A model generated the notes under the pieces. The model made no database searches. It was not told the DNA's origin and was given only the letters and a program-made list of their open reading frames with translations. A DNA stretch of 18,618 nt from IMG/VR virus record IMGVR_UViG_2778261163_000001. The stretch is one strand, 5' to 3'. The position numbers were made by a program, and so were the translations under genes. Of the stretch, positions 1-18,491 are shown one piece after another. Positions within the stretch are counted from its first letter, which is position 1. Each line of letters opens with the position of its first letter. This DNA is from a virus. Lineage: Duplodnaviria; Heunggongvirae; Uroviricota; Caudoviricetes.

Positions 1-574
1 CATCCGCGACAGCCGGACCGCTATAACCGCACTCGTCACCGCGATAGGTCCAGGTGCAGGTGTTGGCCAGCATGATACGTCCCGGAAAAACAGCGCCGTC
101 CGTTTCCGTCGGCGTGGACAGTACAAAAGAGGCACTCACCGCGCTCAGTTCGCTGCACTGCTCGATGCGCCAGCGGCTGATCACCTCCTGCTCCGGATCG
201 GCGTCACTGTTTCCGTTGACGAAGTTCACCGCATCCAGAAAACGGGCGTAAACCTTACGCCGGACCACCGTTCCGCCGACCAGACTCTGCAGATCTTCCG
301 CCATCCCGGTGACCATACCGTACAGGTTAGAAACCGTCAGCGTGGGGCGCGTACTGGTGCCTTTGCCATTCAGTTCAAAACCACTCCCCTGAATGGGATA
401 CGGCTGATACTGTCGCCCCTGCCAGGTGACCGGCTCACCTTTTTCGTTCTGCTCATTACAGAAAAAATAACGTTCTCCACCGACCTCTGTCAGGTCGATT
501 TCCCAGAGCACCACGCTGGCCGACTGCTCCGCACGAATGCATTCATTCAGCGTTTCCTGTTGTATGTCCTGCAT
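1..574 (-). CDS. L: minor tail protein L, 5' portion only (gene runs off the window start)
   Basis: Minus-strand ORF starting ATG at 574..572, overlapping the stop of the M-like gene (ATGA). My own translation reads [72 protein letters not shown]..., which I recognise from memory as near-identical to phage lambda gpL. No stop inside the window, so it is absent from the ORF track. Confidence 0.85.
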   Translation of the reverse strand, partial: MQDIQQETLNECIRAEQSASVVLWEIDLTEVGGERYFFCNEQNEKGEPVTWQGRQYQPYPIQGSGFELNGKGTSTRPTLTVSNLYGMVTGMAEDLQSLVGGTVVRRKVYARFLDAVNFVNGNSDADPEQEVISRWRIEQCSELSAVSASFVLSTPTETDGAVFPGRIMLANTCTWTYRGDECGYSGPAVAD

Positions 575-912
575 CAGATCACCACTTCGTCAAACTGACA
601 CGAAAAATCGGTATAGGTGATATGTTCTGTCGCTGACCACGTTCGACACACCACTCTGATTTTTCTGTTAATACCCGGCGGGCGCCAAAAAAAAGATTTA
701 TAGCCTTCATGCCGGGCTAAAAATTCTTCAAATGAATCACGTTCATTCGCCTCAACTTTGAAATCACAGGTGAAAACGCGCAGAGAATGATTAAGTCCAT
801 TTGGACTTCGTTGCTCATAACCATCACCAAATCTTACAGTTTTTATCGATGGTTTATTTTCTGTTTTCATTCCATCCTCTGGTAACCAGTGAAATTCTTC
901 CGTATTAGCCAC
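574..912 (-). CDS. M: minor tail protein, lambda gpM-like
   Basis: 112-aa ORF with GTG start at 912 preceded by GGGGGA; overlaps the tape measure stop. Contains VRFGDGY and ends ...QFDEVVI, resembling lambda gpM (ends ...EQVVN) at similar length. Position between tape measure and L matches lambda order H-M-L. Confidence 0.75.
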
Positions 913-3900
913 TTAACATTCCCCCATCACGTCGCATATTTAACAGATTGCCCTGCACCCGCTGATCAACCATCCCCATAAGTGCTTTTATTGCCTGAGG
1001 GCCAATCTCTCCATTCTGGCCGTCATTTTGAATAGTGATTTGGTATACAGGGGCATAGGTAATATCTCCGCCTCCATTACCACTTTTACTATTAATAGCT
1101 CTGACACCAAGAGAACCATCGGAAGTTCGTGTTAATGGCATAATGGCTTCCGGTCCAGCCTCACCAAAAACACCAGCCCCTTTTGCAAAAGCAAAAAATT
1201 GCGGGGAATCATAAATACCGTTCGAATACGTGCTCAATGACGGAGACTCATAAACACCGCCCTTTGCATTCGGAATAAATTTACTAATAGCACTCCCGAT
1301 AGTTCCTAAAATCCCCCCAGAAGAACTGTTACTAATGCTGTCGAAAATCCCAGTAATTGAAGCCTTTAATGCTATTCGACTAAGATCCGAAATCACGGAA
1401 GTAGCGAAAGAACGAAAATTTGCCTTGCCTGTCGTGACAAAATCACCCAGCGCATCGGTCATTCCATCAAACATCTGAGTCGTGGTTGATTTTATCTGCT
1501 CACTGATATCCTTAGTGTCATCCAGCCAGTTATTGAATCCCTGGGAGGCACCACTAACCCAGTCTCCTGCCTGAATATCGAGCTGCTCGTTTTTCTGTCT
1601 GACAATTTCTTTTTCCCGTTCCAGAGCATCATTCAGAGCCTGCATTTTCTCTTGAAAAACATGATCTGACATTCCACGGGATTTATCTGCATAGTCACGT
1701 TCAAGTTGCAGACGCTGATTGTTATATCCATGTTCAATCCGCAGTAATTCCTGCTGGCGTTGCTGATTTTTATCGCCAACCCCATAACCAGCAATCTGAA
1801 TATCATACCCCTGCTGACGATTATCAATCGAAGCCTGCAATGAATCACGCCATGCTGTTATTTCGGCGGATTCCTTGATTAGCCTGTTATTTTTTTCAAT
1901 CGCAACATTTTTCTCCATCAACGTGGTTATTTCTTCCCGGTGTAAGAGAAGCGATTTCTGATCCTGGGTTAATTTCGATGATGGTCGTGACTCTAGGTCG
2001 GCAATCCGCTGACGCCACTTAACCAGTTCCTGTTCAGAGGAACTTAATTTAACGGTCAACTCAGCTTGTGAACTTAGTAACGCATTCTGTTGATTCAGAT
2101 GATCAATCATTCGTTGGGCTGCATCATCAGAATAACCTTTCGCCTTTGGTTGCTTTGGATCTTTATAACGCTCATTTATTTGAGCGATAAGATTATTATA
2201 TTCTTCCTTTGAATACTGATTCTTTAGCTTTTCCAGTTTTGCAAGTTCACTAGCTCTCTGCTGCTCCCGGGTCTGATATTGTTTTGAAAAGGCATCTGCT
2301 CTCTGTCTGAGTTCAATTCCTTCCTGTTGTCGCTTGTTGTAATCGTTTATTGATGAATTTAGTACGTCCTGAGCAATTTTTTCTGCTTGAAGTACGCCCA
2401 ATTGCTGCTTTAATCGTGCCAGCCTTTTATTTTGAGCTCCGCCATCTCCAATGCCACCTAACCCGAAAACTCCGGGTCGGGTATTTTTTTCTATTTCATC
2501 AATTTGACGGAGAACATCTGAGATTTTTTGATCAAGGGAGGCCTCACGGCCAATATCCAGCATGGAATCCCATGCCCATTTTGCGGAGTCTGCGACAGCT
2601 TTCCATGCAGTCTCAAGATAACCAAGATTTTCTTTAATCTGGTTGGTGCGCTGGATCATTGAGGATGAGTATTCTTCTGTCGCAATGCGGGCGGCCTCCT
2701 GCTGGTTCCCTTCATCCTGTAGCGCCTTAATCTGGTTATAAGTCGCAAGTGTCAGAAAATGGTACTGATCATTAAGTTTTGATATGGCACTGACAGGATC
2801 CTTTGCAATTTCATTGAAGTCATTAACCAGTTGTTCGGTTGATATTCCTGTTACTTCGCTCGTTTTTACTATCGCTGTCGTCACTTGCTCCAGCGAACTG
2901 CTCGCTACCTTTCCCGAACGCACAAGCTGATTTAATACTGCCGCCGCAGCACCAGTTGTCGAATCAGCCGCATTCCCGGCACGTTGAGCTATATCGCCCA
3001 ATTGCCCGCTGGTTGTCCCCAACTGATTTCCGGTAAGAATAAGAGATTTATTAAATTCGTCCTGCTCCTGAGAGCCTTTATAGTAAGCCAGTCCTAAGAC
3101 CCCAACGGCTGCTGCGGCCAGGGTAAAAGGATTAATTAATCCCAGCACATAAGAACCTACACCTTTGATCGCCGGGCCAATCCCACCGAACATATCTTTT
3201 AGCTGGCCGCCCTGCTGCATTAACACCATAAATGGCGACTGACCAGTGGACAACCCAACAACAATATCCGTCATTTGTGCAGGCAACATGCGCATAGCAA
3301 AAGCCGTTTGTTTTGCCGACATTCCGGTTTTGCTTAATTGTGATTGAGTAACCTCAAGCTCACTCCGCATAGCACGAAGTTTTCCAGAAAGCTCCTCATA
3401 CATTTCAGGAGAAAGCATCCCCTTAGCTTTTGCTTCATTGAGCTGTTTCTGTTGTTCTACCAGACGATTAAAAGCAGTTCCGACAGGATCAAGTTGAGCA
3501 ATCAGACGTTGCAAAGCAACAACCTGTTCATCATGCGCTTTTGCTGCTTCTCGCTCTGCCTGAGCCTCTCCGGTAAGCTCTCGCCGTGTTTCCTGTATTT
3601 TTCGGCTATAATTCTCAAACTGAGAACCATTTATTTTCCCGGATGCAAACGCAGCATTAAGTTCATCATGCTGTTGTTCAAGATTTCTTAGCGCCGCAGC
3701 CAGAGGGTCGATCTTGTCCAGCATTCTTTGAAAGGCCTGAGCCTGCGCTTCCTGCTGGGCGGCAGCAAGTTTTCCGGCCTTCTCGGCTTCTCTCTGCGCT
3801 TGCGCAACCCCGCTCAATTCCTCTGTGGTTTCATTAAGTTTACGGACAAGAAATTCATATTCTTCTTTATCAATAAGCCCTTTATCGAAAAATTTCTTTA

Positions 3901-4138
3901 ATTCAGAATAGCGTCGACCGACAGTATCAATTGCGGCACCAACTGGATCAATAGCTGCTTTTAATTTTGCGAGCGCGTTCTTCTCATCTTCTGTTGCCTT
4001 AGTCACTTTCCCTGCGCTATTTGCAGCAGTTTCCCCAGCCTGCGTCATTTTGACTAATGAGGAGGTCAGATTGTCAGCATTATTTTTCGCTCCAGTGCTA
4101 TCAATAATTATTGCGAGACGCGAGGTTTGCTCTGCCAT
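905..4138 (-). CDS. tail tape measure protein
   Basis: 1077-aa ORF, ATG at 4138 with AGGAG upstream. Highly alpha-helical, Ala/Gln/Glu-rich N-terminal half with three degenerate ~60-70 aa repeats ([15 protein letters not shown]... / [15 protein letters not shown]... / [15 protein letters not shown]...); Gly-rich C-terminus. Sits immediately downstream of the frameshifted chaperone pair, as in siphovirus tail modules. Confidence 0.9.
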
Positions 4139-4151
4139 TTATTAAAACTCC

Positions 4152-4182
4152 TGACAACAAAAAACCCACCGCGAAGTGGGTT
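4152..4182 (-). terminator. putative intrinsic terminator in the chaperone/tape-measure intergenic gap
   Basis: On the minus strand: AACCCAC-TTCGCG-GTGGGTT hairpin followed by TTTTTTGTTGT. The plus-strand reading has no U-tract, so it is oriented for minus-strand transcription. Confidence 0.45.
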
Positions 4183-4303
4183 TCAGGCGACATAATAGTA
4201 GATATAGCGATTACGAGGCCACGCAATGCTTTTCTCCAGGAGCATCATCGATTTAATTAAAGACACCATCACATCTCTGTAACAGAGTGTACGTAATTAA
4301 CAA

Positions 4304-5073
4304 CTACACACACTGCTCCTGAAAATACTGGTCATCCAGTGCAAAGATCACTGCTTCAAATTCATCGCGCTCAATCAATACCGGATGAGTGGCTAAATAT
4401 TCATTTATCTCTGTCAGAGATAAAGGCAAAGGCACCCCAGCCATTCCAGCATAACGTCGGGCACGGGATATTACCGAATAGGCGTACAACAACTCCTTAA
4501 GCACCGGGTCTATTTCTGGTTCCGGTATCGGTGGCAACCTGAGTTTTTCTCGCTTCCATCTTGCCTTTTCCCCCCTTTCTCCCCCGAACTCCGATAACCA
4601 CCGCTGGGCAGCTATGGCTTTTTTATCGTATCCTGCTTCTGCTGCTCTTTACCCTGGGCGATGCTGGCTGCTTCTGCAAGGATCTGCCAGTACAACTCTG
4701 GATTCTGCTTAAGCAGCGCGATCCCTCGTTCTGCCGTATATTCCAGTGCAACCTCAACACCATTAACCAGTTCACCAACCCCTTTCCAGTCTTTCAGCAG
4801 ATAACGAGCGGCATTATCAATGAGTAAATCATCAACAGAATCCACCTCGGAAACCTTTGAAATATCAAACTCCTTCGTTCCGACGTGCAAACTGGCATCC
4901 ATTTTCTCAATGTGGCGACGGATTAATGCATTACGGGAGCGATACTGATCGTTATCGCTGCTTGCCACCAACAGTTTTAACCCGTCTACAGGTTTTAAGT
5001 CCTTCATTGGCGTAAACCAGCGTTCTCCACCAATGATAATTTTCTGATTAAGAATAAACATCCATAACCTCAT
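4304..5073 (-). CDS. tail assembly chaperone frameshift product (gpGT-like), made by a -1 shift at 4618..4624
   Basis: After a -1 slip at A AAA AAG the reading frame stays open with no stop (..AIAAQRWLSEFGGERGEKARWKREKLRL..) and runs in frame into the track ORF 4304..4537 (PPIPEPEIDPVLKELL...). I checked this codon by codon. The 4304..4537 ORF has only a TTG 'start', consistent with expression solely as a fusion. Predicted product about 256 aa. Confidence 0.7.
4612..5073 (-). CDS. tail assembly chaperone (lambda gpG-like, short form)
   Basis: 153-aa ORF directly upstream of the tape measure gene, ending ...DTIKKP-TAG with the slippery heptamer A_AAA_AAG two codons before the stop. Confidence 0.75.
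   Translation of the reverse strand: MRLWMFILNQKIIIGGERWFTPMKDLKPVDGLKLLVASSDNDQYRSRNALIRRHIEKMDASLHVGTKEFDISKVSEVDSVDDLLIDNAARYLLKDWKGVGELVNGVEVALEYTAERGIALLKQNPELYWQILAEAASIAQGKEQQKQDTIKKP
4618..4624 (-). other. programmed -1 ribosomal frameshift slippery heptamer A_AAA_AAG
   Basis: Plus-strand CTTTTTT at 4618..4624 is AAAAAAG on the minus strand, in the 0-frame register A AAA AAG, followed by a G-rich stretch (GGGGGAGAAAGGGGGG). Confidence 0.7.
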
Positions 5074-5121
5074 TCAATGCGTCCCCCTGTAGGGCAGTAC
5101 CACAGGAGGAATAACGGAAAA

Positions 5122-6084
5122 TCAACTAATCGCCTCAGCACTGGCTTTTGCGATCACGGCAGCCGGGGAATTTTTTTTTCTGGTTATCGTAGGTGCTTCA
5201 TCTGCTGCGGTAATGCTCAATTGAACCTGGATAATGTCGCTATTACCCCCATCAGGCCATTCACCTGACACCTGAACCTTCGGGAAACTGAAAGTGTATG
5301 CCCCCTCTCCATTCGAAAGCGTGAAGCTGAACGGAACTGTTTCTCCAGTCAGTGTTTTACTCCAGATTTCCCACGCGGCTTTAGACCATGAAAGCGTCAC
5401 CGTACCGGACGGTGTAAAAGTAGTCGGAATATTTGCTCCTGCATAAGGCGAGCCAGTCCCGATACAACGCTGTGTCTGGAGTTTGTTATCGAACTGAATA
5501 TCAAAACTGTCGATACAAAAACCGTTACCTCCGGCAACACCATTCAGGCTTACTGCTGAAACCTCCTTAAACGAATAACGTAGCTTTCCTGCACTATCCA
5601 CAGGTTCGCCTTTGATAAAATTCGTATCATCGGCCTTTGATTCCCAGTCCAGTCCGGCAAAGGTTACGGTCGCTGTAATATCGCCGTCGTTAGGGATCTG
5701 CATTTTCCATGAGCCAACCTGCGCTCCTCTGACGACAGAGGCAATTCCGACATCGGACGCATAGGTCGCCAGAGAAAATGTTATTCGCTCATTCCCCATT
5801 GTCAGAGAATCGCCTGACCATTCCGCGCCGAAACAGGATGCAAGAAAATCATCATGTTGACCCCAGCGAAATTTGGTACCAACATCACCGCCGACATCCA
5901 CAGTGCCAGGCGTCGCCCCCTGAGCCATCCGGGAGCCACCAATCTCATTATTTTCGCCTTTATTCTGGGTGGGTTTTACTCCCCAGCTTGTGCGTTTTAA
6001 TAAACTCCAGTCACCACTTGCTGGCGTAGTGCCTGCAACCGTCTCCCGGATAAATGCCGAGATAACCTTTGCACCTGAACTCAC
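5122..6084 (-). CDS. major tail (tube) protein
   Basis: 320-aa ORF with GTG start at 6084 preceded by AGGAGG at 5-nt spacing. Gly/Thr/Ser-rich, beta-rich-looking sequence. Assigned by position between the head-tail joining genes and the chaperone/tape-measure genes; no specific family recognised. Confidence 0.65.
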   Translation of the reverse strand: MSSGAKVISAFIRETVAGTTPASGDWSLLKRTSWGVKPTQNKGENNEIGGSRMAQGATPGTVDVGGDVGTKFRWGQHDDFLASCFGAEWSGDSLTMGNERITFSLATYASDVGIASVVRGAQVGSWKMQIPNDGDITATVTFAGLDWESKADDTNFIKGEPVDSAGKLRYSFKEVSAVSLNGVAGGNGFCIDSFDIQFDNKLQTQRCIGTGSPYAGANIPTTFTPSGTVTLSWSKAAWEIWSKTLTGETVPFSFTLSNGEGAYTFSFPKVQVSGEWPDGGNSDIIQVQLSITAADEAPTITRKKNSPAAVIAKASAEAIS

Positions 6085-6110
6085 AGGAGCCTCCTATGTC
6101 ATTAATTGCG

Positions 6111-6503
6111 CTAGAGCGCGCGATATGGAATTTGAAGATTAAGCTGGAACCAGCCATTCTTTTCGCCAACGGCTATTGAGGAAACAGCCTGGTAACTGAG
6201 ACGATCGTCATCCTGAAACTCAAACAGTTCCCGCAATTTATCGGCTGTCTCAGTAATGAGTTTTGAACCAGAACCTGCGGGGACAAATAACTGAATAATG
6301 ATTATCCCCGTGCGATAAACAACCGGCCCCGCGCCAATTTCATTAACTCCAGCCTGCCCGGGAATATTACTTAACCGCGCCCAGATTAACTTACCGGAAG
6401 GATCGAACGTTGGCCCGTTCGGATACAATACATCTTTTCCATCAATAATCGTCTGTGCCGTCATTCTGGAAATAACCGTATTTCTGATTTCAGTAAACTT
6501 CAT
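6111..6503 (-). CDS. tail terminator / tail completion protein (by position, lambda gpU-like)
   Basis: 130-aa ORF immediately upstream of the major tail gene; its start overlaps the preceding gene (ATGA). Confidence 0.5.
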   Translation of the reverse strand: MKFTEIRNTVISRMTAQTIIDGKDVLYPNGPTFDPSGKLIWARLSNIPGQAGVNEIGAGPVVYRTGIIIIQLFVPAGSGSKLITETADKLRELFEFQDDDRLSYQAVSSIAVGEKNGWFQLNLQIPYRAL

Positions 6504-6880
6504 TTGTAAGCCTGTAAAACACCATGAAAAGCGTTGGCATACACTCCAGTTGGCGCTTGTTGTGAATGACCGTTTTCAAGAGCCTCTGCATAAGGAAGGT
6601 TATTCTGGATATAAATAACCCCGTAATTTGCAGCTTTCGAAATAACCCCGATCCCACGCTGAACAGCAATCGTACCGTTCGGATCCACGTTATCAGATAT
6701 ACCAAAATCGGGATGCTGTAACGACACCAGGTTGTTATTTCTGAAACGTCCGGTATCAACCGGAGCAGCAATATCAATAGCAGTAAGAATCTGCATAGCG
6801 ATGTAGCGAATCTTCAGCCCTACATCTTCCTCAATCATCCCGGCAAATATTGACGGTTCTATATCCCATGCCTTTGCCAT
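6500..6880 (-). CDS. tail component / head-tail joining protein (HK97 gp10-like by position)
   Basis: 126-aa ORF, tightly packed in the run of four small genes between capsid and major tail. Confidence 0.5.
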   Translation of the reverse strand: MAKAWDIEPSIFAGMIEEDVGLKIRYIAMQILTAIDIAAPVDTGRFRNNNLVSLQHPDFGISDNVDPNGTIAVQRGIGVISKAANYGVIYIQNNLPYAEALENGHSQQAPTGVYANAFHGVLQAYK

Positions 6881-7264
6881 TTACGCTCTCCTTAACTGGA
6901 TAGAGTAAACTGATGCGGAAGGATCTACACTTGCTGTAATTACCTCGTATCGTTGTAACTGCCTTGATACAGGATCATAAATCTCAATAATATGGTCGAC
7001 AGCTGGTTTATCCGTAACCTCGCATACCAGAGCGGTTAATTTAAGGTCACCATGCAAAATATTAATCCCATCAATTCTGCCCAGCTTATAACGTGTCAAC
7101 ACGCCTCGCCCGGTATAGATTGCGGTGGATTCGCCGCCAGTTTCCGTCACAGGATCCCAGTGCCGGTGCGTAACGTAAGAACCAGAAAAATCACTCACGG
7201 CGTCCGCTAAATCCTCATCAAAAGCAGCGGCAACCTCTGACTGAATCTCTTCACGAAGCCCCAT
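6881..7264 (-). CDS. head-tail joining protein (head closure / stopper by position)
   Basis: 127-aa ORF; abuts the upstream gene with a 1-nt overlap and is contiguous with the next. Confidence 0.5.
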   Translation of the reverse strand: MGLREEIQSEVAAAFDEDLADAVSDFSGSYVTHRHWDPVTETGGESTAIYTGRGVLTRYKLGRIDGINILHGDLKLTALVCEVTDKPAVDHIIEIYDPVSRQLQRYEVITASVDPSASVYSIQLRRA

Positions 7265-7659
7265 TATCCCCCCCTCACAACCCTGACTTGTGAGCGACTA
7301 AGTCCGTACGGTTTCAGCAGTGCTATCGCAAGCTGTAAATCGGGTTCAAGCAATGCAGTGCTGTTTGCTGGCAACTCAGAAAATGATTTCGATACACTGA
7401 CCCCGTCAGCCGACACGGCTTTACTGATAACAACGCCAGAATCATTTTTCTGCTGAAACAACTTACCGAATGAGGCAATTCTGGCTGCATATGCTCCCGC
7501 AAGTTTTACCTCTTCCGGAATACGGGATGGGTTAATTTTCAGGTTGAAGCCATTAAGCCAGGCATTAGCCATTAAAACAGCTTTATTTTTAGCGTTCTCA
7601 CTCGTCCAGGCGTTCCCAAACGCATTATCAACGTCATCACAGGTCACGTAAGTGATCAT
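7264..7659 (-). CDS. head-tail connector / adaptor protein (by position)
   Basis: 131-aa ORF, ATG at 7659 preceded by AGGAG at 6-nt spacing; first of the four small head-tail genes after the capsid gene. Confidence 0.5.
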   Translation of the reverse strand: MITYVTCDDVDNAFGNAWTSENAKNKAVLMANAWLNGFNLKINPSRIPEEVKLAGAYAARIASFGKLFQQKNDSGVVISKAVSADGVSVSKSFSELPANSTALLEPDLQLAIALLKPYGLSRSQVRVVRGG

Positions 7660-7662
7660 GTG

Positions 7663-7839
7663 TTACTCCTGAGTTTTCCAGCCCATAGCCTTCCAGTTGT
7701 CAACTTCATCAGGATGAACATTAGCGATAGTTGGTGCGCCGGGAAACATCTGATAATCGGTCACCATAACCACTAACTCAATTTGCGTTTTTTGTGCGGC
7801 TTCACGCTGTGCTCTTTGCTCTTTAGTTAATCCGGCCAT
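7663..7839 (-). CDS. small hypothetical protein (58 aa), not in the ORF track
   Basis: Found by my own translation: ATG at 7839..7837 to TAA at 7665..7663, giving MAGLTKEQRAQREAAQKTQIELVVMVTDYQMFPGAPTIANVHPDEVDNWKAMGWKTQE. Preceded by a G-rich stretch; its 3' end carries the AGGAG Shine-Dalgarno of the next gene and stops 3 nt before that gene's ATG. Confidence 0.4.
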   Translation of the reverse strand: MAGLTKEQRAQREAAQKTQIELVVMVTDYQMFPGAPTIANVHPDEVDNWKAMGWKTQE

Positions 7840-7848
7840 ATGCCCCCC

Positions 7849-7871
7849 ATTAAAAATGGGGCCGAAGCCCC
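7849..7871 (-). terminator. putative intrinsic terminator just downstream of the major capsid gene
   Basis: Minus strand, 20 nt after the capsid TAA: GGGGC-UUCG-GCCCC hairpin (5-bp GC stem, UUCG tetraloop) followed by AUUUUUAAU. Confidence 0.5.
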
Positions 7872-7881
7872 GTTTGAATGT

Positions 7882-9021
7882 TTAACCAAGAATCAGACAA
7901 CCATGTGCCGGCTTCACTGATGAAACACCCCATGCCAGTCCAACTTCATAGCGCACCTGGCGATACTGACGATACAGTGCAATCTGGAACGTAATCCCTG
8001 AAATCGGGTCCGTAACATTCATTACATCATCAGCATTATCGCCACCTTCCGGCATTGCCGGAGTACGGGATGCCAGCAGAAACGCGTTGCGATCAAACGC
8101 CATATTTGCAGTAAAGGCCCCAACAACTGTGATGGCAGTATCATCGGCCAGATCCTGACGCAGTCCGGGCGCTGCAAGAGTAATCAGATTGCTGGTCGCT
8201 GCTGCCACAACATACTGATTCGGATCACCAGCGAACGTAACAATCTGACCTGCAGAAATACTCCCCGAACCAGTATCAATGGAAATAAGAACATCGCCTT
8301 CTTTTTTCTCTCCATTCACGAGATAACCAGTTGCAGCAACCTTTGGCGCTCGTTTCACACCTGCCGAACTGTGAATATTGAATCCCTCCAGACGCCCCAA
8401 CACGCCCTCACGCAGTAGCTGTTCAGTGCCGGATTCATTCACTTTAAACAATACAGACTGTTTTCCGCGCAAATTAGCAATGGCAGTGGAGCCAAGCACC
8501 ATCTGCAGATCGGTTGTCGGTGCGCCGTTATCCTCCAGAACCTGACGAGCCAGAGCAGCATCAGAAAGATCATCTTTAACACCAAACGGCGTTGTCCCTG
8601 CGGTTCCCACGGCGCGGGAAGCACCGAAATACAACGCACCAAGATCAGCCTCAACCTCGTTTGCAAGGGCGCGAAAAGCCTGCTTGAACTGATCAGCCAG
8701 AATGGTGTTGTAAGTCCCTGAAGGGCCAAGAGCCAGTTGTTCTTCACCATTCCATTTAACCGGTGCCATTTTGGATTTAGTAATTTTTACATCAACAGTG
8801 CCAATATTTTGATCACCGGTATTCGGAGCTGACGGCCCCGGTACGATATCTTCGGTTTTCGCCTCAGGCGCAACTGGCGCGGTTACCGTCTGATCTTTTG
8901 CTGCGGCGTCAGCTTTTGCGTTTTTTGCTACCGCAGGGATAAAACCTACCTGCTCACGGGATACAACATCCAGGGCGGTATAAATAGTCGGGATCAACCC
9001 GGTCAGGGTATTTCCAGCCAT
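7882..9021 (-). CDS. major capsid protein
   Basis: ORF downstream of the scaffold gene and upstream of the head-tail genes. The track start (9114) is a TTG extension; the likely start is ATG at 9021 (MAGNTLTGLIPTIYTALDV..., 379 aa). Followed by a terminator-like hairpin, as is common after capsid genes. Confidence 0.7.
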   Translation of the reverse strand: MAGNTLTGLIPTIYTALDVVSREQVGFIPAVAKNAKADAAAKDQTVTAPVAPEAKTEDIVPGPSAPNTGDQNIGTVDVKITKSKMAPVKWNGEEQLALGPSGTYNTILADQFKQAFRALANEVEADLGALYFGASRAVGTAGTTPFGVKDDLSDAALARQVLEDNGAPTTDLQMVLGSTAIANLRGKQSVLFKVNESGTEQLLREGVLGRLEGFNIHSSAGVKRAPKVAATGYLVNGEKKEGDVLISIDTGSGSISAGQIVTFAGDPNQYVVAAATSNLITLAAPGLRQDLADDTAITVVGAFTANMAFDRNAFLLASRTPAMPEGGDNADDVMNVTDPISGITFQIALYRQYRQVRYEVGLAWGVSSVKPAHGCLILG

Positions 9022-9119
9022 AATTAAATATTCCTTAAAAATTTGCGTAATTGTGAATAGATGGAGTAATGAGCTATCCAGCCCTGACACCAGCTCCCAT
9101 CCGGAAGCTGACAAATGTG

Positions 9120-9884
9120 TTAATCAACGATTGTGATACCGTCTTTCAATGCGTTTTGCTTACCTGCAACATCCAGTGCATCAAAAGCAGAGCGTTTCAT
9201 CGTTTTCTGACCAATATCATGCTGTGTCGGACGGGAGCCGCCGCCATTGTTGCCACTGGCTTTCAGGATGTAGTCTTTCTGAGGGTAATTTTCGACAAGG
9301 AACTCCAGCGCCTCATCAAACTGCGCCAGTTCGCCAGGCTTCGCGCGGGAATAAATTTTGTTGCCGGAAGCGTCATAAGCAACGATCCTCCCTTCTTCCA
9401 CTTTGAATGCCTGCCCGAAGCGGGCTTGTAATAAATCTGCCGGGATCGCAATTTTATCGGCAATATATTTTGAACCCGCAAAACTACCGCCAATCATAGA
9501 ATCGTAAAGCTGCTTCTCCAGCATCTGAGAGCGTTGCTTTTCTTCATCTAATTGCTGCTGAAAATTTTTCGTAATTTCTGCCTTAACCTGGTCAACCTGT
9601 CCCGCATCGAGCAGCTTTTTCTGGTCGATTTTTGACAGCATTTCCAGTGCCTCGATCGCCTTCTTCGGGTCTTCGATAGCGGCAAACTTAGCCAGTTTTT
9701 CCTCTGCAGCTTCTTTAGCCAGGCGATGATTTTTTGCCTCGCCATTAAGCTCTGTAATTTTTTTTGTCGCCAGCGGTGCATCGAAGCCAATTTCTTTACC
9801 ATCGTCGTGCACATAAACTGGCAGGCCAGCAGTATCAATTTCTGCGTATTGTTTTCCGTTAATCTCGACCGTTTTCAGTTTCAT
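9120..9884 (-). CDS. scaffolding protein (putative)
   Basis: Likely start ATG at 9884 (MKLKTVEINGKQYAEIDTAGL..., 254 aa; the track ORF is extended upstream). Charged, helical-looking middle region (AKEAAEEKLAKFAAIEDPKKAIEALEMLSKIDQKKL...QQQLDEEKQRSQMLEKQL). Position between the minor head protein and the major capsid gene. Confidence 0.55.
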   Translation of the reverse strand: MKLKTVEINGKQYAEIDTAGLPVYVHDDGKEIGFDAPLATKKITELNGEAKNHRLAKEAAEEKLAKFAAIEDPKKAIEALEMLSKIDQKKLLDAGQVDQVKAEITKNFQQQLDEEKQRSQMLEKQLYDSMIGGSFAGSKYIADKIAIPADLLQARFGQAFKVEEGRIVAYDASGNKIYSRAKPGELAQFDEALEFLVENYPQKDYILKASGNNGGGSRPTQHDIGQKTMKRSAFDALDVAGKQNALKDGITIVD

Positions 9885-9941
9885 ATTAGTACCTGGTTTA
9901 AGTCTTCCGACAGTTACGCTGCTCACCATCCGGATCGCAGC

Positions 9942-9969
9942 AATAAAAAAGGCCACCCGAAGGTAGCCT
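9942..9969 (-). terminator. putative intrinsic terminator between the minor head and scaffold genes
   Basis: Minus strand: AGGCUACC-UUCG-GGUGGCCU (8-bp stem with one G-U pair, UUCG loop) followed by UUUUUAUUG, starting about 20 nt after the minor head protein stop. Confidence 0.5.
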
Positions 9970-9988
9970 GTTGTAATAAATGATTTAT

Positions 9989-11104
9989 TTAAATCCCTGC
10001 TTTTCTGAATACCTGTGCATCACGCTCACGGAGCTGCTTCAGCGTCAGCCATTCGCCTTTATCGGTGTAAAATTCATCTGGCGACATACCACCATCCCGA
10101 ATCAGCTTTGCTCGGGTTTCCCCCACAATCTGTTTTTGTCTGGTGTAAGGCTGACGCAAAAACCATTCCCTGTAGGTTGTATCTCCGGCCACCACGCCAT
10201 CCATGCTGGCCCGCTCAGCCGGGGAAATATCGCGAACATCAATACCCAGTTCCTTCGCTGATTTCAGAATGAACGTTTCCGTTGAGCGGCAGCAGAAATG
10301 AATTTTTCCCGGCCCCTGCAAATAAGGCACGCTGTGACCTATAGGTTTATTATTCAGCGTATATTTGAGGCGATCCCTGATTCGACATTGTGGCGTAGTA
10401 CGATTATCAAGCGTTGATAACCATTGCTTACCCTTAATCAAATCATTATTCGCGCTGGCAAAACTCTCACGGGCAGTAGCAGCAAGATGTCCAACCGCTG
10501 TTTTTGCAATGCTGGCCGCATTAGCCCGGCTCATCTGCAATGCACCATCCTGAAATCCCTTACTGACATGTCCCCGAATTTTTCTTGCGATCTGCTCATT
10601 GGTATCCCCCAGCAAAAAACCCTGACGCACTGTATTTGTTATGCGTCTGAGCCGATCCGCCTCAAGATCTGAGGCCCACTCACTGAGCAGTCGTCCCTGG
10701 AATGGTCGCGCCATTGCAGCGGCATAAAGTGCATCAGGAGAGATACCAACCAGAGGGTGAACATCAGCAACAAAATCAGGTAGCATAGAATCAAACAGAC
10801 TTAACTGATAACCAGCCTCATAAATTGCCAGCTCGTTCAGCTCTCCGGAGAGACTGGTAAACATGCTGTTAATAGCAGTGCGGTTAACCTCTCTGACGCT
10901 CGCCAGAAGTGACTCCAGGCGCTTAACGGTAAAACTACCTGGATCGAGGCTGTCCAGTGCTATCAGCAGGCGAGCAGTAAGTTCCGCATCGCTGTCATTC
11001 AGTATTTTCACCATTCTGGCAGCCACGCCAGTGCTATAGCGGGATATCCAGACTGCATGAGCAATTGATTCATCACGCAGCCGTTCATTCACGGTTTGCA
11101 TCAT
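9989..11104 (-). CDS. phage head morphogenesis / minor head protein (Mu gpF / SPP1 gp7 family)
   Basis: 371-aa ORF directly downstream of the portal gene (20-nt overlap). C-terminal region ...WLSTLDNRTTPQCRIRDRLKYTLNNKPIG...GPGKIHFCCRST fits the conserved core of the Mu-F-like family as I remember it. Confidence 0.65.
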   Translation of the reverse strand: MMQTVNERLRDESIAHAVWISRYSTGVAARMVKILNDSDAELTARLLIALDSLDPGSFTVKRLESLLASVREVNRTAINSMFTSLSGELNELAIYEAGYQLSLFDSMLPDFVADVHPLVGISPDALYAAAMARPFQGRLLSEWASDLEADRLRRITNTVRQGFLLGDTNEQIARKIRGHVSKGFQDGALQMSRANAASIAKTAVGHLAATARESFASANNDLIKGKQWLSTLDNRTTPQCRIRDRLKYTLNNKPIGHSVPYLQGPGKIHFCCRSTETFILKSAKELGIDVRDISPAERASMDGVVAGDTTYREWFLRQPYTRQKQIVGETRAKLIRDGGMSPDEFYTDKGEWLTLKQLRERDAQVFRKAGI

Positions 11105-12491
11105 TGATTTCCATCAGCATTACACTCTGATTTTTTAATTCATCGATCACTTCCTCTGGACGGGAATCCTGATCGATAAATTTCAACGCCTGCAACACCC
11201 GAACCGCATCAATCTGACGTATATCACCGCCCTGACGCAATGACTGAACAGCCAGCGCGGAGGATGAGTCAAACACCTGGGCAGATACATCCAGTTCAGT
11301 GCGCACATCCACATTGCCACCGCAACTCTCTCCGATCCATTCCGCCATTATCTGGAGAATATTATCGAGGGCATCTTCGAGGGAGTTCGCCATTGTATAA
11401 AGCGGCGAGTTTTCCTGCATTCGCTCTTCATTAGTCTGATCAACAGATTTGGTGGATGTATTTTCAGCACGCAGAAGTTTAGCGCCGGCATGACGCATCT
11501 GATTTTCCAGCTTCTCAAGTGATGTTTCGCCAGATTCTATCGCTGCGCCACTATGTTCAACATATTCGAGGCCATTTTTTGTTCTGTCCTCAAAAATCGT
11601 AGCGGTGGATGCACCAACCGTCAGTTCTTCATTCCTGTCCAGCCCGTAGGCCACCAGCAATGGAACGCGGGCAACATGAAGAATATTGTCCTGCTCGCTC
11701 TGGCTTTGCCAGTGCTTGATATTCAGCAAGCCAAGATTAAGCAATGGCGGTGTACCACGCATAAATCCTGTTTTCTTCGTGTACAGTGTTACCAGAGGAA
11801 TATCATCACGGCTGGTATTCCATGACTCATGAAGCGTCCAGACAGATTCGCCATTAGTGCCTTCGCTACGTCGATAAATTTCAACTCGACGGGGCATAAT
11901 ATGGCGGATCTGCTCCACCTTCTTCTGCCCGAAATCATCACCATCAATAATGATGACCTCTTTTATACGCAAATCAGTGAGAACAACTTTCCCTTTTTCA
12001 ACTTTCGATTTCCATCCAATAACCTGGCGTGGATTCAGCATCGTAACGTACGGACGACCACCGGTCGCGTTTTCATCGGCTTTTGTCCGAATCTCTTTCA
12101 TATCCGTTCGTGGATAGTCCACCAGCGCATGTGCCACACCATACTGAAATGCGAGGCTGAAAAATTGCTGCGCCCACACATCCAGTCGGCTCCCCTCCAT
12201 GTCGATATTTTCTGCATATTCCCTGATTTTTGCCGGCGTTTCCTCACTCAATACTGTCGGCTCTGCAAATATGCGCCCAATATTTTGCTTGATGCTTTCT
12301 TCATACACAGGAAGTAGCGTAGCCACAGACAGGCGTTTTTTATAAGCGTCTTCATCTTCGTTAGGCCATTTTGGGAGATAATTTTCCCCCTGCCTGCGCA
12401 TTTCAAGCGTACCGCCCATCAGTGCGTCGTTAATATCCCACGCCTCCAGCATATCGTTATAGTCGAGGTTGGGTGTTGATATATCAGCCAT
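11085..12491 (-). CDS. portal protein
   Basis: 468-aa ORF starting 2 nt after the terS-terL pair ends (TAA-TT-ATG), between terL and the minor head protein, which is the canonical portal position. Acidic, large protein. Confidence 0.75.
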   Translation of the reverse strand: MADISTPNLDYNDMLEAWDINDALMGGTLEMRRQGENYLPKWPNEDEDAYKKRLSVATLLPVYEESIKQNIGRIFAEPTVLSEETPAKIREYAENIDMEGSRLDVWAQQFFSLAFQYGVAHALVDYPRTDMKEIRTKADENATGGRPYVTMLNPRQVIGWKSKVEKGKVVLTDLRIKEVIIIDGDDFGQKKVEQIRHIMPRRVEIYRRSEGTNGESVWTLHESWNTSRDDIPLVTLYTKKTGFMRGTPPLLNLGLLNIKHWQSQSEQDNILHVARVPLLVAYGLDRNEELTVGASTATIFEDRTKNGLEYVEHSGAAIESGETSLEKLENQMRHAGAKLLRAENTSTKSVDQTNEERMQENSPLYTMANSLEDALDNILQIMAEWIGESCGGNVDVRTELDVSAQVFDSSSALAVQSLRQGGDIRQIDAVRVLQALKFIDQDSRPEEVIDELKNQSVMLMEINDANRE

Positions 12492-12493
12492 AA

Positions 12494-13795
12494 TTAAATC
12501 CGAAGTGATGTGACTCTTCCGGTCGGTTTGACAATAGGGAATTGCTTAACGATGAAATAACCTCCGGCATCATTCGGGTGATCATTGCCAGATTTTTTAT
12601 CAGGCTCCCCCTTCTCATCCCAGACCTGTTGCTCCAGAGATTCGGCATATAACGGGCAACGCTTCACATTAACTTTATAGCGACGCTCACCATTGGCATT
12701 GCAGAACATTGCATTCATTGAGTTAACGCGATCTTTTACTGGCGGGTTCGAGCTGTTCACCACAACGTTAAAACCAGCCTGCTTAAGCTGGGCTATATCC
12801 GTCGTACTTGCGTTACTTGATTTTCTGGAATCCCCGGAAGCATCTGGATAAATATAAATTTCCCTCACTTTCCGGTAATCATTCCCATCATACAGCCAGA
12901 AGCGTTCTTTAATGATGCGGATCATATCCGGCGTATCGTAGGCATTGATGATTTCAGTTACCGCACATGGAAGCCCCAAACGCAGCACATGGACGATTCC
13001 CGCCATCTTTCCAACGTTAAAATCCATCCCAATATAAATCGGCTCCCCTGGCTGCTCCACTTCTTCGCAATTATTCAGTTTCCGGTCAAACTGATGGTAA
13101 ACAGTACCACTTGTCAGGTTAGTAAACTGTCCTCGAAGATAGGCTTTAATCAGCTCTGGAGGGTATGATTCAAGAAGCGAAGGAATGTAATCTGCTGGCA
13201 GGTTCTTTTCATTATCGAAAGTAGATGCCTGCACTAGACCATACAGTGAGGCCAGCTCTGTTTTTTCACGCACGGCTTTAACAAACTGCTCGTAGACAAA
13301 TTTGAATCCTTCCGGCGTGGTTGTAACGTCAATACCGTTGCGAAGTCCATCAATCTTATAACGCATACGTGCAATTATCTTGCGCCACGCCGTTCTGGCT
13401 TTTTCCTTCGGCAAAATGTCCAGTTCATCCACCAACGCATTACCAATTTTGAAACCGACGATCGTTTGTGGCTTCTCCATCGATCTGCAGATAGTGGTTC
13501 CCCGATACTGGCGTCCGTAATAAAAGTGAACCTCTTTATTTCCCTCATTAATTTTTACGTTCAATCCCCAGTCAGCAGCAACTTCTTCCACTGTAGGGTA
13601 AAAAATATCGCGAATTTGGGGATACGTTGGCGCAAAATATCCCTGATTTATACCTGGATGCTCCCAAATCCCCTTGCATATGCCGCCACACCCAACCCAT
13701 GTTTTGCCCGAGCCAAAACCAGCAATATAGGCTTTAAATTTATGGGGCATTGAAAGAAATCGCGCCTGAGGCACATTAAGCGTCGGAGAGATCAT
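12494..13795 (-). CDS. terL: terminase large subunit
   Basis: Walker A (YIAGFGSGKTW), Walker B-like (NALVDELD), and C-terminal nuclease-type acidic motifs (IGMDFN, YPDASGD, HPNDAGGYF). Likely start is ATG at 13795 (MISPTL..., 433 aa), 8 nt after AAGGAG; the track's 13804 start is GTG. Confidence 0.9.
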   Translation of the reverse strand: MISPTLNVPQARFLSMPHKFKAYIAGFGSGKTWVGCGGICKGIWEHPGINQGYFAPTYPQIRDIFYPTVEEVAADWGLNVKINEGNKEVHFYYGRQYRGTTICRSMEKPQTIVGFKIGNALVDELDILPKEKARTAWRKIIARMRYKIDGLRNGIDVTTTPEGFKFVYEQFVKAVREKTELASLYGLVQASTFDNEKNLPADYIPSLLESYPPELIKAYLRGQFTNLTSGTVYHQFDRKLNNCEEVEQPGEPIYIGMDFNVGKMAGIVHVLRLGLPCAVTEIINAYDTPDMIRIIKERFWLYDGNDYRKVREIYIYPDASGDSRKSSNASTTDIAQLKQAGFNVVVNSSNPPVKDRVNSMNAMFCNANGERRYKVNVKRCPLYAESLEQQVWDEKGEPDKKSGNDHPNDAGGYFIVKQFPIVKPTGRVTSLRI

Positions 13796-14870
13796 CTTCA
13801 TCACTCCTTACTCTGGCATCAACCACATTAATATTGATCGCCACAGGCTGGGGATGTTCATTATCCTCCACCGTTTCGATCTCTTTGCGCAGCTTCTGGT
13901 TTTCTATTCTGCGCCGTTCAATTTCCAGTTCCTGTAGCCGCTTATCTGCACATAATGCCCCGCCAGCAGAAAGCAAACGCAACAATTCACGCCGGGCGGC
14001 AGCCTTATCCTCCAGCAGGATCTCAACACCGTATTTTCCGAGCTTTGACCCTGCATATAATTGCCGCGCATCCCCATCAAGCAGTGTGGTATCAGCCATA
14101 TAAAGCTGTCCCGTTCCCTCACCGCAGCACTTCGGGCAATCCGGATTGGGTATGGCGTTATCAACAAAGCCGAGGCCTCCATATTCCGGCTCGGGTTTAC
14201 CATCTCTGGAGGCCTGTGCCGCAGCCTTATCGAATTCTGCAATATCACGCCACTGGTAGAGATGATTCTCGCCCCAGCAATAACGGCAGTTAACACGGCG
14301 AAATTGTGCCAACTGATTGGGGTCGGCCTGGACAATGGCCATCAACTGGCTCACCAGTAAATCCAGGTCTGCGGTATAGCGTTTCTGGTACTGATTGCGG
14401 AAGTAGCTGATAGCACGATAAACCCTGGCATTTCTAAGCATACGACTGGCGTTGCTGTTAGCTGTCGCACCTTGCCCCTCATAACCGGCTAGTCGGTACG
14501 CCTCTGTCGGCTTTTTACCCTGAGCAACAAGCATCGCAAACTTAGCCTGCTGGTCAGAAATGCCGAATTCATCGGGACAGAACGAAAATTCCTCCGCGTC
14601 GCCTTCATTCAGGCCCGCATCGAATACTGGCTTTTTTTCCTGAGATTTTTCGTTCCGCTTTTGTGCAGTCTGCGCAGATTTTTTCTGCGCACTTTTTTGC
14701 GCAGTTTTGCGCATTTCTGTCTGCGCATTTTTCGGAGTTTTTTTGATGTAACGACGGGCTGTTGCGTAATTCAGTCCCCTTGCTTCACACCATGCCACCG
14801 GAGATATACCGGAGCGGGTGTATTCAGCAATATACTCCTGCTGCAACGCCCCCCAGTCCGGTCTGCTCAT
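13776..14870 (-). CDS. terS: terminase small subunit (long form, with Cys4 cluster)
   Basis: Immediately upstream of terL and overlapping it. Central segment ...SDQQAKFAMLVAQGKKPTEAYRLAGYEGQGATANSNASRMLRNARVYRAISYF... fits the small-terminase HTH pattern. Also has an N-terminal HTH-like region, a Lys/Gln/Ala-rich linker, and a CxxC...CxxC cluster (CRYCWGENH...CPKCCGEG). Confidence 0.75.
   Translation of the reverse strand: MSRPDWGALQQEYIAEYTRSGISPVAWCEARGLNYATARRYIKKTPKNAQTEMRKTAQKSAQKKSAQTAQKRNEKSQEKKPVFDAGLNEGDAEEFSFCPDEFGISDQQAKFAMLVAQGKKPTEAYRLAGYEGQGATANSNASRMLRNARVYRAISYFRNQYQKRYTADLDLLVSQLMAIVQADPNQLAQFRRVNCRYCWGENHLYQWRDIAEFDKAAAQASRDGKPEPEYGGLGFVDNAIPNPDCPKCCGEGTGQLYMADTTLLDGDARQLYAGSKLGKYGVEILLEDKAAARRELLRLLSAGGALCADKRLQELEIERRRIENQKLRKEIETVEDNEHPQPVAININVVDARVRSDEDDLSDA
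14662..14727. repeat. phased array of palindromic TGCGCA hexamers separated by T-tracts, inside terS; candidate pac / terminase-binding site
   Basis: Five exact TGCGCA copies at 14671, 14686, 14698, 14708 and 14722, plus a TGTGCA variant at 14662, spaced 9-15 bp apart with T-runs between them. They coincide with the AQK-repeat linker of TerS. The repeat itself is read directly; the function is inference. Confidence 0.4.
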
Positions 14871-14873
14871 CAG

Positions 14874-15125
14874 TTAGTCCTGATTTTTATCCACCCTGAG
14901 TAGTTCGCGCAGAGCAAAGGCATCCCCTTTTCTGGCAAGCTTAAACAATGCCGCTCGTAACTCGGCTTCACCTTTCGCTCTGCCCTTACGGATGGCCGCA
15001 TAAAAATCTGTCATTGCTTCCCGATTTTCTTTCAGTCGGTTCAGATCAACATCCAGAACGTCAGCGATTTGTTGTGCAGTCATCCGGCACGCTGCCAGAG
15101 ACTCGACTTTCGAATACGGAATCAT
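14874..15125 (-). CDS. small helix-turn-helix protein, function unknown (possibly packaging-associated)
   Basis: 83-aa ORF, ATG at 15125 preceded by GGGGGTGA. Segment TAQQIADVLDVDLNRLKENRE looks like an HTH. Stops 3 nt before the terS start; overlaps the 3' end of the upstream glycosyltransferase-like gene by about 65 nt. Confidence 0.4.
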   Translation of the reverse strand: MIPYSKVESLAACRMTAQQIADVLDVDLNRLKENREAMTDFYAAIRKGRAKGEAELRAALFKLARKGDAFALRELLRVDKNQD

Positions 15126-15993
15126 TTGTCACCCCCATTGATATGCAGGGTGTCTTCTTCCTGTATTTTTCGTGAAGGATTTTTACTGCAGCGTTGTTCC
15201 AGGTGACCTGATGGTGAATGCGTTTATGGCTGGCACCCATCAGTGAAATTTTTACGCACGACGGCGCATACATGACGGAGTAAAAACTTTTAACGTAGGT
15301 TCCGGAATCCAGATACAGCTCGGTCATTCCGCCGCTGTTTTTCTGCGTCTGTTTCTGCCCTAACTGGACAGCACCGATCGTCATAAACAATTCACCACAG
15401 CGACCGAGATTCGTGTACGTATTCACATCCTCGTTAATGCGCCCCATGAATGAGAACGGTCGATCAACCGAACAGATAAAGCTGTTCATTGCCTTGCGTT
15501 TCACCCACGAAGCATGGCCGCCATTGTCACCAAGAAAATCCCCGCCCTGCGACATAGCGATGGAAAGAGCAGGTATTGATTCGTAGTACGCCAGCATTTC
15601 AGAAAGGATCGCATCCAGTTTCCTTATCGGAAAATAGGCCTGGTCATAGTTGCGATCCACCCGAAACTGGAACTCGTGATAATCATCATCGAGCTGAATG
15701 AAGTATTTACACCCGACCAGTTTTGCCAGGTCGAAACAGGCATTACGGGCGTAAAAAATTGAGCGGCGGTCACAGAAATTATCGGCTTCGTCAAAACGAC
15801 TGGCGATATCGGTTTTGGAAAACACCAGCACCTGTTCACCAAATTCAGCCATGTACTGATGCCGTGTCTTATCTTCATCATCAACAACGATAAAAATTTT
15901 CCCGGTATAGCCAGCACGACGCAACGTTCGGTAAGTCAGAACTTTGTCCGGTCGCCCGTGAGTCAGAATAAAGGCGCAAAAATCATCACGCAT
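15061..15993 (-). CDS. GT-A-fold (GT2-like) glycosyltransferase-like protein, soluble
   Basis: Likely start ATG at 15993, 5 nt after GAGGAGGAGG (310 aa; the track start at 16014 lacks an SD). Motif layout typical of nucleotide-sugar GT-A enzymes: N-terminal strand AFILTHGR, acidic pair after strand 2 (KIFIVVDDED), and a DxD motif in the context ARNACFDLAKLVGCKYFIQLDDDYHEF. No obvious hydrophobic membrane segments. Confidence 0.5.
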   Translation of the reverse strand: MRDDFCAFILTHGRPDKVLTYRTLRRAGYTGKIFIVVDDEDKTRHQYMAEFGEQVLVFSKTDIASRFDEADNFCDRRSIFYARNACFDLAKLVGCKYFIQLDDDYHEFQFRVDRNYDQAYFPIRKLDAILSEMLAYYESIPALSIAMSQGGDFLGDNGGHASWVKRKAMNSFICSVDRPFSFMGRINEDVNTYTNLGRCGELFMTIGAVQLGQKQTQKNSGGMTELYLDSGTYVKSFYSVMYAPSCVKISLMGASHKRIHHQVTWNNAAVKILHEKYRKKTPCISMGVTNDSVFESRVSGSVPDDCTTNR

Positions 15994-16777: not shown

Positions 16778-16791
16778 ACATCCTTGCTTTA

Positions 16792-16829
16792 TGAATAAAA
16801 CGCACCCCAGCAGCCAGTGCTACTGGGGG
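16792..16829 (-). terminator. putative intrinsic terminator downstream of trkG
   Basis: Minus strand: CCCCAGUAGC-ACUG-GCUGCUGGGG (10-bp stem with one U-G pair) followed by UGCGUUUUAUU, lying between the trkG stop (16915) and the ParB-like start (16777). Confidence 0.55.
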
Positions 16830-16914
16830 CGGAGGTGTTGCTGGTAAAGTTAGGTATTGGATCAATGAGTGAGTCAACATAATATTAAACTCACAATTAT
16901 AAATCAGCCATATA

Positions 16915-18372: not shown

Positions 18373-18390
18373 ATCTAAATATTCTTTCAA

Positions 18391-18450
18391 TTATAACCAC
18401 CTTGCTGCAATATTATGATTATACTGTATAAAATTTAACTCCTCTTAGAT
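18391..18450 (-). promoter_or_regulatory. putative trkG promoter region
   Basis: Two perfect TATAAT hexamers on the minus strand upstream of the trkG start (complement of 18390..18395 and of 18418..18423) in AT-rich sequence. No convincing -35 hexamer and no clear Shine-Dalgarno, so placement is tentative. Confidence 0.3.
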
Positions 18451-18491
18451 CTTACTTCACTGTTCCTTATGAAACAATCATCAAAATGAAT

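Follow-up and report, generated by a model that had tools for sequence, protein, structure and literature searches.

The trkG-linked late operon of full-length Escherichia coli Rac prophages, from which K-12 Rac is very probably derived by deletion

According to a 2019 review, the Rac prophage is incomplete in Escherichia coli K-12 and intact in EDL933, and 'full-sized Rac-like prophages' are mentioned by Jobling (2016). Liu et al. place the prophages Sp10 and CP-933R at ttcA and cite work according to which these elements are able to infect K-12. KingRac, a further prophage of the Rac-like kind, can be induced and yields particles, and in the mouse gut it takes the place of K-12 Rac (Frazao et al., 2019, 2025). 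KingRac, Rac-SA53 and Sp10/CP-933R share the Rac-type integrase, the ttcA site and the early region with the Rac lineage, and they establish K-12 Rac as a defective member of a living family. The locus described here is a stretch of 18,618 nt (the window) from the IMG/VR virus record IMGVR_UViG_2778261163_000001 (Caudoviricetes), in which the potassium transporter gene trkG is accompanied by packaging, head and tail genes. These very probably make up the late operon, with virion and packaging functions, of full-length Rac in E. coli, K-12 Rac being a derivative that has lost approximately 29 kb through three internal deletions.

The Rac prophage of K-12 MG1655 (NC_000913.3, 1411899-1434958) aligns to the window at two pieces only, both of which retain the order and orientation of the window: 16524-18491 (1,968 bp, 99.49% nucleotide identity) and 3204-4963 (1,760 bp, 99.94%). 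The first consists of trkG and the first ~84 codons of a ParB-like gene, the latter being what is annotated as ynaK in K-12. The second consists of ydaY, which is the 3' 117 codons of a gene for a 153-aa chaperone G, and ynaA (tmpR), which is the first ~311 codons of a gene for a 1077-aa tape measure protein, with the K-12 breakpoint at window position 3203/3204. The three K-12 genes are thus cut-down versions of the ParB, chaperone and tape-measure genes, and K-12 represents the derived, deleted state. A preliminary description of the window had given the gene order of K-12 Rac and regarded the window as its non-decayed relative. The MG1655 annotation, which runs trkG, ynaK, ydaY, ynaA (tmpR), lomR::IS5, stfR and tfaR, agrees with that order, and the relationship proposed is the one found. 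Judged from the near-identical flanking segments, and from the position of trkG between the lysis and late genes, the window is a member of the Rac lineage.

The prophage of strain E275a (NZ_CP035865.1), in which locus coordinates correspond to those of the window plus 15000, was used as the full-length reference for the K-12 deletions. The two prophages are collinear over their entire length, and the segments that K-12 retains on the replication and immunity side are 99.96% identical to E275a. The first deletion removed 11,562 bp, extending from within the ParB-like gene to within the chaperone gene; the junction is clean, and the missing stretch (window 4964-16525) is ambiguous in its placement by a 2-bp TT microhomology. 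K-12 consequently lacks the rest of the ParB-like gene, the glycosyltransferase, terS, terL, portal, head, connector and tube genes, together with the start of the chaperone gene on its 5' side. The second deletion, of 8,345 bp, has a blunt junction and removed everything from tape-measure codon ~311 to a point within lom. The third, of 9,373 bp, runs from Rz into ydaW across the Q/lysis region, with a 2-bp TA microhomology. K-12 additionally has an IS5 insertion in lomR. The alignment to K-12 Rac proposed in the preliminary description therefore defines the deletion endpoints, and the intact late genes are not present in K-12.

In the window itself, all substantial open reading frames lie on the minus strand, and not one of the called genes contains an internal stop codon. 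The siphovirus packaging, head and tail set is complete and uninterrupted, comprising terS and terL, portal, scaffold, capsid, connectors, tube, a chaperone pair, the tape measure and, for the tip, M and L. The open reading frame survey, the Pfam and PHROG profile scans and the phase of the slip site all bear out the earlier claim of full-length genes with intact starts, translational coupling and a frameshift site. The span originally given to this module, 574-13795, is correct in its gene content, but ends at the start of terL and so leaves both terS and trkG outside. The genes for the tip proteins K, I and J and for the fibres fall beyond the start of the window and are found in near-identical genomes.

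The distribution of this arrangement was surveyed across 5,426 complete E. coli genomes; trkG is present in 1,551 of them. At least 80% of the 11.6-kb head block missing from K-12 is present in 706 genomes (about 13%), and at least 80% of the entire window is found in one place in 694. The preliminary description thus overrated the rarity of the intact form, full-sized relatives of K-12 Rac also being in the literature already. The K-12-type junction occurs in 348 genomes; in the rows sampled, every single-piece match to this junction comes from K-12 or a laboratory strain. The other trkG carriers, E. coli B among them, have different deletion endpoints, and mostly retain the trkG-proximal side. 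Among 1,562 trkG matches, 15 fall on records labelled as plasmids. Several hundred copies are also present in IMG/VR, mostly as prophage predictions from isolate genomes. Full-length Rac-type prophages in E275a, ON470614, ON032529 and IMG/VR entries are 98.9-99.7% identical to the window at the nucleotide level, over either positions 1-18491 or the whole of it, and the copies in RefSeq, GenBank and IMG/VR, which are already annotated gene by gene, show only allelic differences from it. Databases already list the intact trkG-linked Rac module, which is common, so that the finding is both correct and unremarkable.

In near-identical genomes, the prophage carries int, xis, recET, kil, sieB, racR, ydaS/T, replication genes, a Q-like gene, holin, endolysin and Rz. 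These are followed by the present module and then by K, I, J, lom, stf and tfa, such that the lambdoid prophage is apparently complete; the Rac int and xis genes and, on the tail-fibre side, uspF and ompN are present in these genomes. A cultured lambdoid phage, HK639 (NC_016158), has its head genes in the same order, with amino acid identities to the window of 69% for the portal, 50% for the head morphogenesis protein, 65% for the scaffold, 75% for the capsid and 62% for a small protein. Its annotation has an equivalent connector and tail layout, with terminators inside the tail-gene region at positions comparable to that of a hairpin in the window (4159-4183). Matches are weak for Neck1 (38%), the tape measure (28-35%) and M and L (31%), and no significant match is found to the window terS, terL, Ad1, Hc1, tail terminator, tube or chaperone. 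HK639 also lacks trkG and the ParB-like and glycosyltransferase genes. As it is a viable cultured phage with homologous head genes, this type of head is one that builds viable phages.

Outside E. coli, window positions 1-18491 recur in one Escherichia ruysiae genome, which is 98.65% identical over this stretch and has none of the 20 genes broken. Between its structural genes and those of the window there are 114 synonymous and 78 non-synonymous differences, giving a ratio of non-synonymous to synonymous divergence (pN/pS) of 0.20, with similar results for other pairs. A structural-gene pN/pS of around 0.2 implies that the differences accumulated under purifying selection. Divergence is unevenly distributed: the window terS allele has a pS of 0.08-0.09 relative to all four copies compared, whereas adjoining genes are much closer, and the block from tube to tape measure is identical to some copies and diverges by ~4% at synonymous sites from others. 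The same terS is 90% identical over 733 bp, at the nucleotide level, to that of the LT-II toxin phage Rac-SA53. Such patchiness suggests the mosaicism expected of phages that are still recombining, with terS as a sign of exchange between Rac-like phages. Upstream of trkG, neither K-12 nor most of the full-length copies match the window beyond exactly 18491, and the final 127 bases of the window are found in a subset of genomes only; by this comparison, the mosaic boundary at 18491/18492 separates the cargo block with trkG from alternative ends of the lysis cassette. The earlier suggestion that the element could be inducible fits these data, given the apparently complete prophage in near-identical genomes, the purifying selection and the occurrence in a second Escherichia species. 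Induction and virion production by a trkG-carrying Rac are plausible, and the copy in the window may still give rise to infectious particles carrying trkG.

The alternative that best survives is that the prophage is grounded: the module would look intact, yet no infectious particles would be formed, owing to faults elsewhere than in the window, to inconspicuous missense or regulatory changes or to a genome that is too large, and the element would spread only vertically, by recombination or by conjugation. This is quite possible, although on balance doubtful. Several observations weigh in its favour and against a functional phage. No virion-derived sequence is found among the records that contain the module, the 'phage' entries in GenBank being predictions. 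The window itself carries no integration, immunity, replication or lysis genes. Although all 20 genes are intact in 18 of the 26 near-identical IMG/VR loci that cover the full gene set, the other eight of this sample have one or two broken genes, indicating that decay is common, and many genomes have independent deletions that retain the trkG side. The copy in Shigella flexneri SFBU0723 is 98.4% identical to the window, but its trkG and ParB-like gene have many indels and stop codons, reflecting either real decay of cargo genes or assembly error. A review argues for the conjugative spread of such prophages. Finally, the full E275a prophage is, as a coordinate estimate, ~52.9 kb long, in comparison to 49.6 kb for HK639, which could be limiting for a headful packager. 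On the other side stand the structural pN/pS of ~0.2 with more than 100 synonymous changes, the intactness of all 20 genes in copies from two species and the allelic mosaicism of terS and the tail genes, which suggests ongoing exchange with other phages. The 98.65% identity of the E. ruysiae copy also argues against grounding, as the genome of this species diverges from that of E. coli far more than such a value implies.

In the same Shigella copy, no internal stops occur in the two terminase genes or in those for the head and tail, and Ad1 has a 1-nt gap. None of the database records could be accepted as proof of virions. The vB_EcoS-...R records (ON470581-ON470616) are PHASTER regions of clinical isolates, some of which are cut within tail genes; ON032529.1, 'Salmonella phage SPF_0923', still contains, besides sitABCD, three genes of the E. 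coli chromosome (ydbK, ompN and uspF); and the IMG/VR copies, as mostly prophage predictions from isolates, were rejected as evidence of encapsidation.

It is very improbable that the window is simply the already characterised KingRac, or else Rac-SA53, Sp10 or CP-933R. In favour of KingRac are its ttcA site and Rac-type early genes, as well as its inducibility, particle formation and replacement of K-12 Rac in the mouse gut. However, its published gene list contains no trkG, and the late genes in that list are of lambda-type length (510, 1929, 204, 1593, 1506, 348, 1029 ... 2580 bp), unlike those of the window, hence the identification of the late module with that of KingRac was rejected. The Rac-SA53 locus examined has only terS in common with the window (83% amino acid and 90% nucleotide identity), and LT-IIa toxin genes occupy the position of trkG between the lysis genes and terS. 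For Sp10 and CP-933R, whose late modules probably differ as well, the published 99% identity to K-12 Rac covers the leftmost 8 kb only. A search of the available literature did not find an explicit description of the intact, trkG-linked Rac late region, but only incidental gene lists. Nevertheless, the finding is already known in substance, since full-sized Rac relatives are published and the element is annotated in hundreds of public genomes. More improbable still is the reverse direction of change, in which K-12 would be the original short element and the structural module a later insertion between ynaK and ydaY: this is a formal possibility given the mosaic nature of lambdoid phages and the allele exchange in the terS and tail blocks, but ynaK, ydaY and ynaA are pieces of longer genes, the 263-aa ParB-like gene is conserved in distant phages, the K-12 junction is confined to K-12 or laboratory strains in the rows sampled, and E. 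coli B and further strains show other endpoints.

Deletion from a full-length Rac prophage therefore remains the favoured explanation of the K-12 form, and the window displays what the late region contains. Its genes were assigned by Pfam and PHROG profile scans of the open reading frames, and are given here in minus-strand order. The first, trkG (16915-18372), encodes a 485-aa protein of the TrkH family (Pfam TrkH, 3.8e-144) with 99.9% identity to annotated trkG. The region upstream (18373-18491) contains TATAAT twice, at 18423-18418 and 18395-18390, and a terminator-like hairpin lies just 3' of the gene (16805-16828). Next are a 263-aa ParB/Srx-like protein (15986-16777; Pfam ParB_N, phrog_620 1.1e-90) and a 310-aa GT-A glycosyltransferase of the TAGT/GREB1 family (15061-15993; PF20691 3e-35, phrog_842 6.8e-104) with DDD at residues 102-104. 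The full-length ParB-like gene is frequently labelled 'ynaK' in annotated genomes. A 69-aa protein (14874-15083) resembles part of a small-terminase family (phrog_309, 1e-17), and is followed by the 364-aa TerS (13776-14870; phrog_51 9.8e-77, Pfam Terminase_2) and the 433-aa TerL (12494-13795; Pfam Terminase_6N and Terminase_6C).

The head genes begin with the portal (11085-12491; DUF4055, phrog_145 3.5e-165) and a head morphogenesis or minor head protein similar to Mu F and SPP1 gp7 (9989-11101; Pfam Phage_Mu_F, phrog_241 3.7e-182). The scaffold (9120-9884) matches Pfam DUF6651 (1e-60) and the scaffolding family phrog_206, and the 379-aa major capsid protein (7882-9021) is of the P22-coat type (Pfam P22_CoatProtein, phrog_283 1.6e-136), its HK639 counterpart being the major head protein. 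The conserved 58-aa protein that follows (7663-7839; phrog_1514), matched by HK639_07, has a gene position that suggests it is head-associated. The connector region consists of the head-tail adaptor Ad1 (7264-7659; phrog_493 7e-49), the head closure protein Hc1 (6881-7264; phrog_161), the tail completion protein Neck1 (6500-6880; phrog_169 2.8e-55) and the tail terminator (6111-6503; Pfam Phage_tail_terminator_5, phrog_179).

In the tail region, the 320-aa major tail tube protein (5122-6084; Pfam Phage_tube_2, 9e-32) is followed by the chaperone G (4612-5073; phrog_313, phrog_1189). A slip heptamer, A_AAA_AAG, is found in X_XXY_YYZ phase near the 3' end of G (4624-4618), and a -1 frameshift at this point would extend G into a 256-aa GT fusion (4304-5073, ending at 4304) in the computed frame; with its predicted slip site in the correct phase, the G/GT chaperone pair is of the lambda type. 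Annotation pipelines have spread the names of the K-12 fragments to this gene as well, as in E275a, where the chaperone gene is called a 119-aa 'ydaY' (locus 19612-19971). Between the chaperone and tape-measure genes, the hairpin at 4159-4183 is terminator-like, consisting of AAACCCAC/GTGGGTTT and a T run. The tape measure protein (905-4138) matches Pfam TMP_2, TMP_4 and Tape_meas_lam_C. The 112-aa minor tail protein M (574-912; Pfam Phage_min_tail, 1.3e-31) precedes minor tail protein L, of which only the 5' part (1-574) is present, as the gene is cut by the start of the window (phrog_18/4199, E of at most 1e-105; 97% nucleotide identity to lambda L/M). Stop and start codons overlap or abut between the genes for the tape measure and M, M and L, Ad1 and Hc1, Neck1 and the tail terminator, terS and terL, and the portal and the Mu F-like protein. 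Rfam and tRNA scans of the window gave no matches.

The layout suggests a scheme for late expression. Transcription would arrive from the Q/lysis side and first pass trkG, which appears to be a self-contained cargo gene with -10-like hexamers and its own terminator hairpin. It would then cross the ParB-like/glycosyltransferase pair, and proceed to read terS-terL, portal, the Mu F-like gene, scaffold and the P22-type coat. The genes for four connector proteins would follow, and lastly a lambda-style tail: tube, G and GT through -1 slippage, tape measure, and tip proteins M and L. The position of trkG, between the lysis cassette and the packaging genes, is accompanied by a lower G+C content (0.37-0.42, as against ~0.47 in the rest of the window). 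A consensus promoter scan upstream of trkG found no full -35/-10 match, despite the TATAAT hexamers. Further cargo seems to be present inside the right end of the prophage in some strains, as in E275a (locus 2129-5578) and ON032529.1 (3865-7314): the sitABCD operon, for iron/manganese transport, occupies the interval from the gene for Rac tail-fibre assembly to uspF, at the position where K-12 has pinR-ynaE-ynaM. A region of E275a that is deleted in K-12 (locus 39274-42347) encodes a SIR2-family protein, a non-canonical purine nucleoside triphosphate pyrophosphatase, an adenosine deaminase and a TetR regulator, which from its gene content is possibly a defence-type cargo cluster.

No head protease gene was seen in the window, and the head therefore looks scaffold-dependent. 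The closest cultured relatives of the TerL protein are those of Pseudomonas phage Medea1 (70%) and of Jersey-, Kaguna- and Dhillon-type siphophages (40-51%), all of which we take to be headful packagers. Packaging here may for this reason also be of the headful (pac) type. Five TGCGCA hexamers, of the 11 in the whole window, are clustered within 57 bp in the 5' part of terS (14671-14727), at a spacing of 10-15 bp. As this cluster encodes a lysine-, alanine- and glutamine-rich stretch of TerS, it could be either a pac-type terS binding array or a repetitive linker-coding sequence.

The ParB-like and glycosyltransferase genes directly upstream of terS (together 15061-16777) overlap by 8 nt. The same overlapping pair is found, with 38-47% amino acid identity, in the Lactobacillus phages phi jlb1 and c5, directly upstream of the terminase genes, and in the haloarchaeal virus HHTV-2, where terL follows at a distance of ~3 kb; in the comparison loci L125, L126 and L127 the pair occupies 3774-5349, 3696-5358 and 90-1713, respectively. 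Among the residues invariant in the alignments are DDD of the transferase and, for the ParB-like protein, the motifs GH-R (GHGR/GHTR) and ADN. A search of PDB sequences gave no match for the glycosyltransferase, and weak matches to the N-terminal parts of ParB, Spo0J and Noc for the ParB-like protein. None of 35 other Enterobacterales prophages that share this head family carries the pair, which implies that the packaging machine has it as an accessory and not as a component.

That ParB guides DNA-modification enzymes during packaging was an earlier proposal, and according to a 2026 paper in PNAS, the ParB homologues of phages switch on their partner enzymes, thymine dioxygenases, on DNA. In the 5mYOX/ParB systems of the latter study, a TET/JBP-family dioxygenase lies next to ParB, whereas the partner in the window is a TAGT-family glycosyltransferase. 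No TET/JBP dioxygenase is annotated beside the pair in phi jlb1, c5 or HHTV-2, or anywhere in the full-length Rac prophage, and a lenient Pfam scan of the window (E of at most 10) gave no match to the Tet_JBP domain. A tentative idea, rather unlikely as it stands, is that the ParB/GT-A pair might be a self-contained module in which ParB would activate or target the transferase, so as to glycosylate phage DNA or a packaging component at encapsidation. If true, this would be a type of ParB partner differing from the ParB-dependent thymine dioxygenases described in 2026.

As a discovery, the intact late region is of little importance; its use is in clarifying the nature of K-12 Rac. The late region of the K-12 prophage is no anciently eroded fossil, but a ~99.9% identical copy of a prophage that other strains still have intact, from which three stretches have been cleanly deleted, and the names ynaK, ydaY and ynaA denote fragments of genes. 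Natural strains with an intact copy provide settings in which the phage-borne transfer of trkG, and in some strains also of sitABCD, could be tested. If the full-length Rac prophage also still circulates, then E. coli would offer a system at hand for the study of the ParB/glycosyltransferase module.

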